Shown: positions 41,052-45,260 of the stretch, in pieces | How positions within the stretch are numbered: position 1 is the first letter of the stretch | Layout of the letters: each line of letters opens with the position of its first letter | Source: Eledone cirrhosa | Taxonomy: Eukaryota | Reading direction: 5' to 3' | DNA: 64,000 bases | Assembly: GCA_964016885.1 (NCBI GenBank) | Contig: OZ024766.1 | Span: 8,556,001 to 8,620,000, forward strand | The notes under the pieces: generated by a model | What the model was told of the DNA's origin: nothing | The model's database searches: none | The model's input: the letters and a program-made list of their open reading frames with translations, nothing else | Made by a program: the position numbers and the translations under genes

Positions 41052-44000
41052 TTAGAAATATTTGCCCAAGATAATCTTGGCTAGCTTCTGCTTAGATTTT
41101 GAGTACTTTTTAATGGAATGAAGGTTGGCGTGTGTCTTTAATTGTGACTGAGACTTAAAGGTCATATCACAGCCGTTGAGGGGGCAGTGGAAAACAGGTT
41201 GGACCTTAGAACGGTGGCTAGAGTGGTCCTTAACGTGAGAGTCAAACTTGGATTTCTCTAAGAACACCTGGCCACACCCAGACTTGGGACAGGCGAAGGA
41301 ATTCCGTGCAGCGGATGGGTGACTCCGAAGATGTTGGCTGAGTAAAGAGCTACTGAAAAATATGTCCCCGCAAATCGAACAGACGAGCTTTTGGTGGAGG
41401 TAGGTTGGCCCTTCGATTGCAGTGACCGTACAGCTTGGTTGTTGATCTTGCTGCTGCTGCTGCTGTTGTTGTTGTTGTGGGGTCTGCTGGGGGTGTGGAT
41501 GTAGAAGGGTGTAGATGGGGGGCTTTTGATCCGTGTTTTGGTGGGCGATAGCTTCTGATGGGTGACAGGATGGTTGTGCATTAGGATACATCCCAGAAAC
41601 TACACTACCGCTACTACTACTACTACTAGTGGTAGTACTACTACTGTTAATACTACTACTACTACTACTACTACTGTTATTACTGGCAGTGGTATTCCAG
41701 GGTTGATATTTCGAGAAGGAAAAAGAAGAGGTAGAAGAAGAAACAGCCAAAGACGAGGAGGGAGAAGCGGTAGAATTTCTGGAACTTCGGAACACTTCCA
41801 CGCAGTCTTTGGCCGAATAAAGTATATTGTCCATTTGCTGTTTGGCCAAACTACCCATGGACATAGAACAGCGCATCTCGGTGTGGTAAAACAGGTGGAT
41901 TTTTAGAGAAGACGCAGACACAAATTCCTTTCCGCAACTGTTGACCGAACATATGTATTTACTGGGTGATTTCTTAACCGAGCTTGGACCAGACTGACCA
42001 CCACTATTACTACTGCTGCTGCTGCTGTGTGGAGATTTGACCGAGCTTGGATCAGACTGACCAAGGTTACTGCTGCTGCTGTGTGGAGATTTGACCAAGC
42101 TTGGATCAGACTGACCAAGGTTACTGCTGCTGCTGTGTAGAGGCTTGACCGAGCTTGGATCAGACTGACCAAGGTTACTGCTGCTGCTGTGTGGAGATTT
42201 GACCGAGCTTGGACCAGACTGACCAAGGTTACTGCTGCTGCTGTGTAGAGGCTTGACCGAGCTTGGATCAGACTGACCAAGGTTATTACTACTGCTGTGT
42301 AGAGGCTTGACCGAGCTTGGATCAGACTGACCAAGGTTATTACTACTGCTGCTGTGTAGAGGCTTGACCGAGCTTGGATCAGACTGACCAAGGTTATTAC
42401 TACTGCTGTGTAGAGGCTTGACCGAGCTTGGATCAGACTGACCAAGGTTATTACTACTGCTGCTGTGTAGAGGCTTGACCGAGCTTGGATCAGACTGACC
42501 AAGGTTACTGCTGCTGCTGTGTAGAGGCTTGACCGAGCTTGGATCAGACTGACCAAGGTTACTGCTGCTGCTGTGTAGAGGCTTGACCGTGCTTGGATCA
42601 GACTGACCAAGGTTATTACTACTGCTGTGTAGAGGCTTGACCGAGCTTGGATCAGACTGACCAAGGTTACTGCTACTGCTGTGTAGAGGCTTGACCGAGC
42701 TTGGATCAGACTGACCAAGGTTATTACTACTGCTGTGTAGAGGCTTGACCGAGCTTGGATCAGACTGACCAAGGCTACTGCTGTGTAGAGGCTTGACCGA
42801 GCTTGGATCAGACTGACCAAGGTTACTGCTGCTGCTGTGTAGAGGCTTGACCGAGCTTGGATCAGACTGCCCAAGGCTACTGCTGTGTGGAGATTTGACC
42901 AGGCTTTGGTCAGAATGACCAGCAGGACTAACACTACTGTTGCTGTGGCTATCTTGAAACTTGACCGATCTTTGGCCAGACTCGACATACCTGTTGCTGT
43001 TGTCAGGATGATGTGACCCCGTGACAGACGAAAGCCCTGCTGCCCTTTTAGGGTCCTCAATTCCAGCATCAGCAAACTTAATGTTGGATCTGGTTGAAGG
43101 CGTCATAGTCACAGTAGGGACCTGACTGGATTTGATCCGGGTATTCTCAGCTTCACCTTCTGTCAGCGTTGAATTTGACTTTGTTGCACCCTGGTCGTTG
43201 CCCCAGCTGGGCCCGGTCGTGGCCGTCGTGGGATTTTTAGGGGTCCGTACAGTTTGACTGCTACTGGCGACAATCACCATATCCTGGTTGCTCCAGCTGG
43301 GCCTTGTCGTGGCCGTCGTAGGATTTTTAGGGGTCTGTACAGTTTGGCTGCTACTGGGGGCAATCACCATATCCTGGTTGCTCCAGTTGGGCCTGGTCAT
43401 GGGCATCGTAGGATTTTTAGGGGTCTGTACAGTTTGACTGCTACTGGCGACAATCACCATATCCTGGTTGCTCCAGTTGGGCCCGGTCGAGGCCCTCATA
43501 GGATTTTTAGGGGCCTGTACAGTTTGGCTGTTACTGGCGGCAATCACCATATCCTGGTTGCTCCAGTTGGGCCCGGTCGTGGCCCTCGTCAGATTTTTAG
43601 GGTTCTGTACAATTTGACTGCTACTGGCGACAATCACCATATCCTGGTTGTTCCAGGTGGGTCCCGTCGTGGCCCTCGTCAGATTTTTAGGGGCCTGTAC
43701 AGTTTGGCTGTTACTGCCGGCAATCACCATATCCTGGTCGCTCCAGGCGGGTCCCGTCGTGGCCATCGTAGAGTTTTTAGGGGTCCATACAGCTTGGCTG
43801 TCAGCAGGGGACATAATTATATCCGGGTTGGCATTGCTCCAGCTAGGTCGGGTCATAGCTTCCGCAGGGCTCGCAGGGGTCTTTACAGCCTGGCTGTTAG
43901 CGGGTGACTTTGACGGTATCAAATGTATGACAGTTCCACGCAGCTGGGGCTTGATATTTAAAGGGTTCTCTTCAATTACGGGGTCACCCTGTGGGTTTTG

Positions 44001-45260
44001 TGGTAGGCCACACCCAGTTCTTTCGTCAGTAAGGACTGGGGAAACAGCAGAAACATTCTGGTACTGATTAGGGTTTTTTACTTCAGAGGAAGGGACACCC
44101 TTCATGTCTTCGTCTTGGGGTAAGCTGTCGTTAATCTGATCGGTAACCGCTTTAGACATAGACGTATCGAGAGGGCTGCTACATCCTTGACTTAGCGGTG
44201 AGTCAAGCTCATTGCTGTTGTATTTAGATTTACCAGCAGTGGTTGGTGCTGTTATGTACCCAGATAATCTGCTGGCTATAGACCTTTTCCTGTGGCCCTT
44301 TTTTGGGTATTTCTTTTTCAGAGGTCTGGTGGAGTCGTGGTTTTTCAGATGTTCCAGCATCTTGTGTTTGAACGGGAAACTCCGAGTACATCCATTGTGG
44401 GGACAGGGAAACCGACGGCCATCGTGGTAAGACTTTATGTGAGCCACAAGGTTTCGCTTCATCGTATAGTAACGTCCGCAGCCCTCTCTCGGACACGCAA
44501 ACACCTCTCTCGTCTCCGAGTGGACCTTCACGTGTTTCCGCAAGCACAACCTCGAAGCGAAGGTAAGGTCGCAGCAGCGGCACTTGTGCAGCGTGTTGTG
44601 AAGGGACGACCTGTGACTGATCAAGTGCGTCCATTTCTCAAAAGATTTTTCACACTGATTACAGGTGTAACCTTCGTGCACCTTCAAGTGTCTCTTGAAG
44701 TGTCTAAACACACGAAAGGAGTTCTTACATCCCGTGTGCGTGCAGCGGAAAGGGTTGAGCCCTGTGTGTTCGAACTCGTGTTGTTTTAAGCCATGGTGCT
44801 TTTTGAAAATCTTTCCACAACCCTCGACCGAGCACCTGTATCTTTTACTGCTAGATTCATGCACATTACGCAAATGCACACGCAGATTCTGCGGGCTCTG
44901 GTAAGTCTTTGGACAGCCGTCGACAGAGCAAGCGAGTCTTTCTCTGGTAGGAGCGGTGACTGCGTCAACACCACCACCACCACCCGACGAGTGTGGTGAC
45001 AGATGATGGGGTTGTGCAGCAGAACAGCACTTAAGGTGTCGGTTCAAGTGGTCCTTTCTCGAGTAGGTTTTGTCGCAGCCGTCGTTTCGACAATGGAAGG
45101 GTCTCTCGCCGGTGTGCTGGCGAATGTGTTGGTCCAAGTAAAGCCGTTTACTGAATGTCTTGGAGCAGTCCTTCATGGAGCAAACATACATGGTCTTTCT
45201 CGACATCATGGTTTTCATCATCAGTGACGTCATAGTCTTCGCTGCAGCAGTAGCATTCAT
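41052..45260 (-). CDS. GTF3A: Transcription factor IIIA, intronless, 1402 aa (9 canonical fingers + extended C-terminus with 4 extra C2H2 fingers)
   Basis: Nine N-terminal fingers with TFIIIA-type spacing (HTGERPF linker, KVHEGYTC, VFACPREGCGRYYT, FPCPHNGC) followed by KRSIASRLSGYI, matching the conserved TFIIIA KRSLASxLSGY motif. Uninterrupted ORF with an in-frame TAG 15 nt upstream of the ATG; splice acceptor at 45297-45298. Confidence 0.93.
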   Translation of the reverse strand: MNATAAAKTMTSLMMKTMMSRKTMYVCSMKDCSKTFSKRLYLDQHIRQHTGERPFHCRNDGCDKTYSRKDHLNRHLKCCSAAQPHHLSPHSSGGGGGVDAVTAPTRERLACSVDGCPKTYQSPQNLRVHLRNVHESSSKRYRCSVEGCGKIFKKHHGLKQHEFEHTGLNPFRCTHTGCKNSFRVFRHFKRHLKVHEGYTCNQCEKSFEKWTHLISHRSSLHNTLHKCRCCDLTFASRLCLRKHVKVHSETREVFACPREGCGRYYTMKRNLVAHIKSYHDGRRFPCPHNGCTRSFPFKHKMLEHLKNHDSTRPLKKKYPKKGHRKRSIASRLSGYITAPTTAGKSKYNSNELDSPLSQGCSSPLDTSMSKAVTDQINDSLPQDEDMKGVPSSEVKNPNQYQNVSAVSPVLTDERTGCGLPQNPQGDPVIEENPLNIKPQLRGTVIHLIPSKSPANSQAVKTPASPAEAMTRPSWSNANPDIIMSPADSQAVWTPKNSTMATTGPAWSDQDMVIAGSNSQTVQAPKNLTRATTGPTWNNQDMVIVASSSQIVQNPKNLTRATTGPNWSNQDMVIAASNSQTVQAPKNPMRASTGPNWSNQDMVIVASSSQTVQTPKNPTMPMTRPNWSNQDMVIAPSSSQTVQTPKNPTTATTRPSWSNQDMVIVASSSQTVRTPKNPTTATTGPSWGNDQGATKSNSTLTEGEAENTRIKSSQVPTVTMTPSTRSNIKFADAGIEDPKRAAGLSSVTGSHHPDNSNRYVESGQRSVKFQDSHSNSSVSPAGHSDQSLVKSPHSSSLGQSDPSSVKPLHSSSSNLGQSDPSSVKPLHSSSLGQSDPSSVKPLHSSSNNLGQSDPSSVKPLHSSSSNLGQSDPSSVKPLHSSSNNLGQSDPSTVKPLHSSSSNLGQSDPSSVKPLHSSSSNLGQSDPSSVKPLHSSSSNNLGQSDPSSVKPLHSSSNNLGQSDPSSVKPLHSSSSNNLGQSDPSSVKPLHSSSNNLGQSDPSSVKPLHSSSSNLGQSGPSSVKSPHSSSSNLGQSDPSSVKPLHSSSSNLGQSDPSLVKSPHSSSSNLGQSDPSSVKSPHSSSSSSNSGGQSGPSSVKKSPSKYICSVNSCGKEFVSASSLKIHLFYHTEMRCSMSMGSLAKQQMDNILYSAKDCVEVFRSSRNSTASPSSSLAVSSSTSSFSFSKYQPWNTTASNNSSSSSSSSINSSSTTTSSSSSSGSVVSGMYPNAQPSCHPSEAIAHQNTDQKPPIYTLLHPHPQQTPQQQQQQQQQQDQQPSCTVTAIEGPTYLHQKLVCSICGDIFFSSSLLSQHLRSHPSAARNSFACPKSGCGQVFLEKSKFDSHVKDHSSHRSKVQPVFHCPLNGCDMTFKSQSQLKTHANLHSIKKYSKSKQKLAKIILGKYF

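Follow-up and report, generated by a model that had tools for sequence, protein, structure and literature searches.

A conserved 13-finger variant of transcription factor IIIA in Eledone cirrhosa, with a C-terminal finger block that very probably copies its own fingers 7-9

Introduction

The zinc-finger proteins have transcription factor IIIA (TFIIIA) as their founding member, and among the animal sequences examined here its plan of nine fingers hardly varies. A 64,000-nucleotide (nt) stretch of the Eledone cirrhosa genome (GenBank assembly GCA_964016885.1, contig OZ024766.1, positions 8,556,001 to 8,620,000 of the forward strand; hereafter, the window) contains on its minus strand an uninterrupted open reading frame (ORF) of 1402 amino acids (aa), at 41052..45260, in which the nine TFIIIA fingers are followed by four more. 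This locus raises the question of whether a 13-finger TFIIIA is genuine and, if so, where its additional fingers come from and what they might do. The results presented here reveal a real, conserved TFIIIA variant. It is apparently undescribed: no account of an octopus, cephalopod or squid TFIIIA (GTF3A) with extra fingers was found in the literature searched, most subscription journals lying outside it, and TFIIIA does not appear in the text or in the two supplementary files examined of a 2025 survey of cephalopod C2H2 genes (PMC12513265).

Results

Nine canonical fingers and four more in one frame

The gene is identified, on sequence grounds, as the E. cirrhosa TFIIIA (GTF3A). Among solved structures, aa 24-343 match TFIIIA best (1tf6, E 6e-31), and the closest named relatives of the protein are likewise TFIIIA. 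PF22110, a Pfam finger specific to TFIIIA, reaches 31.1 bits when aa 1-353 are searched and 26.2 bits with the whole protein, against a cut-off of 27. Finger profiles were derived from 33 of 38 chosen non-cephalopod TFIIIA proteins, five being left out because the finger pattern did not give exactly nine fingers, and all nine core fingers chose their own position among these profiles. The tail motif after finger 9, which we take to be the 14-residue activation segment of Xenopus, scored 27.0 bits on a position-specific scoring matrix (PSSM) built from 27 non-cephalopod tails. A search of the E. cirrhosa genome returned no second close match to the core, the next match showing 36% identity among the 125 scored of 5637 candidates.

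The initial annotation had read nine TFIIIA fingers, the tail motif and four more fingers in a single frame, and the ORF and the finger pattern bear this out, with fingers starting at aa 25, 55, 109, 141, 171, 198, 225, 254, 284, 1102, 1292, 1322 and 1357. The canonical fingers 1-9 (aa 25-308; 44337..45188, on the minus strand like all features of the gene) are followed by a basic tract and the conserved tail motif (aa 314-335, the motif proper at aa 325-335; 44256..44321), modeled as a short helix of low confidence. Beyond them lie two coding minisatellites, one with a 90-nt unit in 6.7 copies (aa 487-688; 43197..43800) and one with a 54-nt unit in 16 copies (aa 792-1082; 42016..42885), which together account for about 490 of the 1402 aa. 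Finger 10 (aa 1102-1126; 41883..41957) is followed by a conserved 36-aa stretch (41775..41882) with a predicted helix, a Ser/Gln-rich low-complexity linker predicted to be disordered (41421..41774), fingers 11-13 (aa 1292-1381; 41118..41387) and a basic C-terminal tail with a predicted helix (41055..41117). The two repeat blocks, the poly-Ser and poly-Gln tracts and the Gly/His insert past finger 2 (44937-45023) are thus all present as described. Finger 2 does end in Cys instead of His, as had been pointed out; it is, however, a regular C2HC finger (His-x3-Cys), and since the six relatives in the cephalopod clade with a complete core all have the same type, it constitutes no defect. Counting back from finger 1, the Octopus start aligns with Met14 (45221) rather than with Met1, and the true start codon is uncertain. 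An A-rich tract lies past the stop codon. Tandem repeats cover some 62% of the window, minisatellites of 40-130 nt being numerous among them, and the arrays inside the TFIIIA coding sequence are in keeping with a genome-wide trend. The 3.0-Gb host genome also contains many single-exon zinc-finger frames.

Distribution of the extra fingers among TFIIIA proteins

Direct orthologues with the same 13 fingers were identified in Octopus sinensis (XP_036371090.1 and XP_029653420.1; 749 and 760 aa) and Octopus bimaculoides (XP_052833286.1; 749 aa), and further proteins of the Octopus type measure 747 aa. In RefSeq these orthologues are named ZXDC and CTCF (O. sinensis) and zinc finger protein 271 (O. 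bimaculoides); given the TFIIIA-specific evidence, orthology to the ZXD, CTCF or ZNF271 families is unlikely. Both minisatellites and the Gly/His insert are missing from all four Octopus-type relatives. Because Octopus holds the same 13 fingers in 749-760 aa, the large size of the E. cirrhosa protein mostly represents species-level repeat growth. Hence, of the "giant 13-finger TFIIIA" initially proposed, the four extra fingers are real, but the size comes mainly from minisatellites of this species and the finger layout is not that of one species. The TFIIIA size of 340-370 aa assumed in that proposal was also too narrow, as 144 non-cephalopod TFIIIA proteins span 296-582 aa, with a median of 398 aa.

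Shorter extensions are present in a sister lineage that is likely squid or cuttlefish, represented by the P0014 cluster (633 aa) and P0015 (635 aa). Both carry C-terminal fingers and the tail and lack finger 10, and in P0015 the first of the three extra fingers is without its zinc ligands. The P0014 cluster has also lost the zinc ligands of finger 3, which are intact in P0015; finger 3 is part of the main DNA-binding set in Xenopus TFIIIA (PMC2566860). In a tree of 31 cores, which held no non-TFIIIA outgroup, E. cirrhosa groups with Octopus (100/99) and the octopod clade is sister to the P0014/P0015 long forms plus two short forms, P0017 and P0018 (100/99), the bootstrap being not fully settled. 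The short forms constitute a TFIIIA paralogue of the sister lineage (403-426 aa) with an acidic N-terminal extension and an insert in place of finger 4, lacking both the tail motif and the C-terminal extension; they may be specialised forms or serve as competitors. A repeat search of the E. cirrhosa genome returned this locus as its one match among the 103 scored of 5166 candidates, and no short paralogue resembling P0018. No sequences named Nautilus were among the relatives found.

Outside the cephalopod clade the extension is close to absent. The census covered 255 matches, 153 of them above a clear TFIIIA threshold; 146 of these fall outside the cephalopod clade, mostly in vertebrates, and 144 of the 146 have no extra fingers. 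One of the two exceptions is a Timema model (P0281) with generic fingers far downstream, and the other is a double whole copy in amphioxus (P0053; Branchiostoma lanceolatum XP_066287850.1). The latter is a 989-aa model named zinc finger protein 420-like in which TFIIIA occurs twice in nearly identical form, with fingers 1-2 repeated in addition; it may reflect a tandem duplication of recent date or a fused model. Extra fingers were found neither in bivalve (Ylistrum, Sinanodonta, Mytilus, Ostrea, Mactra, Solemya) nor in gastropod TFIIIA (Babylonia, Littorina, Patella, Haliotis, Gigantopelta), nor in the nemertean and Priapulus TFIIIA examined, and the expectation that the extension is not standard in lophotrochozoans is therefore upheld for the bivalves, gastropods and nemerteans named. 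Among 553 candidates for another giant orthologue (771-2454 aa), only 10 generic zinc-finger proteins with 23-30% identity were recovered.

The extra fingers are more conserved than the core

As a measure of selection, E. cirrhosa was compared at the protein level, region by region, with the four Octopus-type proteins. Finger 10 is identical at 23-24 of 25 positions, the 36 aa that follow it at 29 of 36, and the region from finger 11 through the tail at 106 of 116 (19/19 for the compared residues of the C-terminal tail), while the canonical fingers with their linkers are identical at 198-204 of 265. The extra fingers thus range from 84 to 96% identity, compared with 75-77% for the canonical fingers, and are therefore under selection. 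All zinc ligands of the octopod extra fingers are kept. The four extra fingers, which sit on a long low-complexity linker, are probably functional.

Fingers 11-13 resemble fingers 7-9

When matched against the non-cephalopod profiles, E. cirrhosa fingers 11, 12 and 13 chose F7, F8 and F9 in order, and the last two fingers of P0014 and P0015 chose F8 and F9, with none of 221 class-matched control fingers scoring as high. A hidden Markov model (HMM) of fingers 7-9 ranked the extension of all seven proteins above the best domain of each of 112 control zinc-finger proteins (51.8 bits in E. cirrhosa and 68.7 bits in P0014, versus a control maximum of 51.5 bits), whereas with the HMM of fingers 1-3 the E. 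cirrhosa extension failed to exceed 105 of the 112 controls, and with that of fingers 4-6 it exceeded none of the 112. No triplet among 2386 control triplets matched the P0014 score or margin. Within the E. cirrhosa genome, the best other match to triplet 11-13 is the same gene's fingers 7-9 (42.4 bits). The sister lineage keeps the finger order, the loop lengths and the short His-Asp-Gly linker, and in five of six extensions the best-scoring position for the tail motif falls on the terminal basic helix. These results suggest that fingers 11-13 very probably derive from fingers 7-9 through a duplication that predates the split of the two lineages, which, if these are octopods and decapodiforms, we presume to have occurred some 270 million years ago. 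Rather than a foreign module, the extension appears to repeat fingers that TFIIIA already has.

Finger 10 bears on the extent of the copied block. Together with its flank it scores 69 against finger 4, a value reached by none of 375 control fingers, and in Octopus a remnant past finger 10 lies in register with finger 6 (reached by 2-4 of 1000 shuffles, with nine profiles tried and the register first spotted by eye). The simplest history compatible with these sequences would be one duplication of fingers 4-9 plus the tail, followed by decay of different parts in each lineage. We lean slightly towards a copied block of this extent, in which the copies of fingers 5-6 would have decayed and the copy of finger 4 would survive, as finger 10, only in octopods. 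The finger-10 module itself has no further copies in the genome (16 of 16 candidates scored, returning only itself), and in the ESM Atlas it falls among generic C2H2 clusters. Assignment of finger 10 to the dimerising single C2H2 fingers of the "CGEx" type was considered and rejected, as no such motif precedes it; that type is described as confined to Diptera, in a source that names a different Octopus protein (10.1101/2025.09.04.674178).

Several observations count against these derivations. Once the nine possible choices are allowed for, the assignments of single extra fingers in E. cirrhosa do not reach significance; for finger 12, F8 is tied with F9, and O. sinensis finger 12 chooses F5. 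The E. cirrhosa lead over the controls in the HMM of fingers 7-9 is thin (51.8 versus 51.5 bits), eight of the 2386 control triplets reach its score, and the runner-up for triplet 11-13 in the genome scores 42.2 bits, next to 42.4 for fingers 7-9. The second tail is not significant alone, its PSSM score being reached by 40-478 of 1000 shuffles, and a tail-only HMM gave no score on it. Finger 10 scores nearly as well against finger 13 (65, reached by 12 of 375 controls) as against finger 4, and in E. cirrhosa the remnant past it matches the F8 profile better than F6. Since the E. cirrhosa signal alone is thin, it is the sister lineage, with the order, loop lengths and linker kept there, that carries the case for duplication.

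5S ribosomal RNA genes of the host genome

In total, 47 copies of the 5S genes were scored, with arrays on two contigs. Ten loci were read in detail; they comprise two sequence types, distinguished by positions 63, 79, 95 and 106, and each locus carries one ordinary control region. The array at G000:C4:92.40-93.14 Mb (L015-L019) is arranged head-to-tail, and that at G000:C14:42768914-42777589 (L021-L026) consists of mostly strand-alternating copies, with head-to-head pairs 416 bases apart. The two types bring to mind the division of 5S genes in frogs and fish into oocyte and somatic types.

A possible second protein-docking site

The regions of TFIIIA have been assigned distinct roles in model species. 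In Xenopus, contacts with the control region come from fingers 1-3 and 7-9, and fingers 4-6 bind 5S RNA (PMC2566860); TFIIIA from finger 7 on, including the 14-residue tail segment, acts in complex assembly beyond DNA contact (PMC1950542). In yeast, cryo-electron microscopy places fingers 6-8 and the helix beside finger 9 on the TFIIIC subunit tau138 (PMC10245719). In E. cirrhosa the contact positions (-1, 2, 3, 6) of fingers 10-13 read SSSI, SSLQ, ESKS and SSQT, and triplet 11-13 has a net charge of +5, versus +12 for fingers 7-9 (+2 versus +8 in P0014). An AlphaFold2 model of the extension shows four folded fingers and helices after finger 10 and at the C-terminus, joined by a linker with a predicted local distance difference test (pLDDT) score under 50. 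Because the copied part docks TFIIIC in yeast, the contact positions are Ser-rich and the charge is lower, protein docking is likelier than new DNA targets. We give an even chance to the proposal that the last three fingers and the tail of octopod TFIIIA are an old internal copy that provides a second site for protein docking, with TFIIIC as the likeliest partner. Fingers 1-9, judging from what is known of the family, would engage the 5S gene control region and 5S RNA in the usual way, and fingers 11-13 with the second tail would form a docking module on a predicted flexible tether, which the two minisatellites would merely lengthen in E. cirrhosa. Such a module would catch TFIIIC, or a TFIIIC-like surface, close to the 5S array. 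That the copy holds it there and thereby helps reloading or bridges adjacent 5S genes is a tentative suggestion. A bivalent TFIIIA common to coleoids, with two TFIIIC-docking modules on one tether that couple neighbouring 5S genes, choose between the two 5S types or carry TFIIIC to non-5S sites, seems unlikely.

Some points speak against docking of this kind. The structure models are of low confidence (predicted template modelling scores, pTM, of 0.19 for the extension and 0.32). Xenopus fingers 7-9 also contact box A (PMC2566860), making DNA binding by the copy possible. Between the octopod and sister lineages, moreover, the copy is identical at 28 of 73 positions, compared with 46 of 74 for the original, and P0015 has lost zinc ligands, so that a single, unchanged TFIIIC interface is disfavoured.

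The initial annotation had proposed new DNA or RNA targets, or a role with RNA polymerase II, and such a second nucleic-acid-binding module, directed at box A of a second 5S gene or type, at other RNA polymerase III genes, at RNA or at RNA polymerase II targets, has features to recommend it. The fingers hardly vary among octopods and keep all their zinc ligands, and the tail has a basic charge of +7. Box A is contacted by the parent fingers, finger 4 is one of those that bind 5S RNA (PMC2566860), and there are at least two 5S sequence types, three of whose four variable positions lie in or beside the control region. The contact positions, however, are mostly Ser, with one Lys and no Arg among 16, the linkers are not of the TGEKP type, finger 10 has a net charge of +1 and lacks the Lys-Lys-His of finger 4, and the 5S genes read carry but a single control region. 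Given these positions and the reduced charge of the triplet, the proposal has gained no support, and we regard a nucleic-acid module as doubtful.

The strong conservation of the copy within octopods, set beside its divergence between lineages, would also be expected if it had left the 5S machinery, either to bind a new partner or to fold back and adjust TFIIIA activity, by autoinhibition or competition, in a way that differs by lineage. Finger 10 and its 36-aa helical flank, octopod-only and present as a single copy in the genome, fit this view, but both lineages retain just the triplet and the tail, which is the TFIIIC-facing part of the parent, and a departure of this kind appears improbable. 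That the extension is untranslated or functionless, through a frame open by chance and read through or a fusion of gene models, is very improbable. The sequencing runs listed, four from a single study, include none recorded as RNA, and fused models are indeed known in the family (P0053 in amphioxus, P0281 in Timema). Here, however, a single uninterrupted frame is present in genomic DNA, with 28-118 stops in each of the other five frames across 41061-44250; the layout recurs in two named Octopus species and another Octopus-type protein; and the extra fingers are more conserved than the core. All 22 measured unit spacings of the two arrays are multiples of three (16 of 16 in the 54-nt array, at 48-63 nt), and the ORF contains no AATAAA and no consensus-like donors or acceptors of the patterns tested. 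A tethered protein-docking module, with TFIIIC as first candidate, is the reading favoured over these alternatives.

Gene neighbourhood and 5' end

A candidate splice acceptor, consisting of a pyrimidine tract and AG, is seen in the sequence at 45296..45330 (minus strand), 36 nt ahead of the first ATG. A stop in the TFIIIA frame lies between this acceptor and the ATG, and an upstream exon would therefore add no residues to TFIIIA. A 47-codon Asp/Glu/Cys-rich frame (45154-45296, minus strand) starts at the candidate acceptor, overlaps the first 35 TFIIIA codons in another frame and includes a donor-like site at 45190. Its product has no Pfam match, and the best it reaches in the Atlas is 0.90, to clusters without a name and with low recognition; the frame might represent an upstream ORF overlapping TFIIIA or belong as an exon to another transcript.

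Upstream of TFIIIA lie exons of a Golgi alpha-mannosidase II-like gene (PF07748; G000:C27:8622976-8656915, L028-L031, minus strand). Nesting of TFIIIA within this gene was considered and rejected, because the reading frame of the mannosidase ends some 3 kb beyond the window. Downstream, exons of a WDR61 (SKI8)-like gene occupy window positions 15552-32037 on the minus strand; its first coding exon was not located, and it may share a 5' exon with TFIIIA.

Discussion

The 1402-aa length of the E. cirrhosa protein is in itself of little weight. A conserved, probable internal copy of the TFIIIC-recruiting part of TFIIIA amounts to a natural experiment on the roles of fingers 7-9 and the tail beyond DNA binding, and the module, at 110 residues, is directly testable in octopus or squid. 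For cephalopod models, the assignment also puts right the annotation of an essential gene that database records carry under wrong names.

Compared with metazoan TFIIIA (GTF3A; Xenopus, 1tf6), the E. cirrhosa protein shares the nine ordered fingers with their finger-specific signatures, the short linker between fingers 5 and 6, the basic tract and the tail motif, and differs in its four extra fingers, the second basic tail far downstream and the C2HC finger 2. The Xenopus exons follow the finger repeat (PMC2566860), whereas the E. cirrhosa coding sequence is one genomic open frame. With 13 fingers, E. cirrhosa departs from the usual animal layout, which has no finger past the ninth. That layout is not universal, since TFIIIA of the fungi Schizosaccharomyces pombe and Yarrowia lipolytica has ten fingers (PMC2566860, PMC1950542) and is thus alike in extending C-terminally; fungal TFIIIA has one extra finger, however, and cephalopods have three or four, with a three-finger block and tail that are apparently copied. 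The 81-residue spacer of Saccharomyces cerevisiae TFIIIA (PMC2566860, PMC1950542) likewise provides a precedent for long spacers on a working TFIIIA. The Y. lipolytica protein, at 655 aa, was called the longest TFIIIA in a 2008 account, and compares with 749-760 aa in Octopus and 1402 aa in E. cirrhosa. Duplication of TFIIIA is known as separate genes in teleosts (gtf3aa/gtf3ab; PMC6991959), whereas here it appears to have taken place inside one gene; the sister lineage additionally has a separate short paralogue (P0017, P0018), for which the search of the E. cirrhosa genome gave no counterpart.

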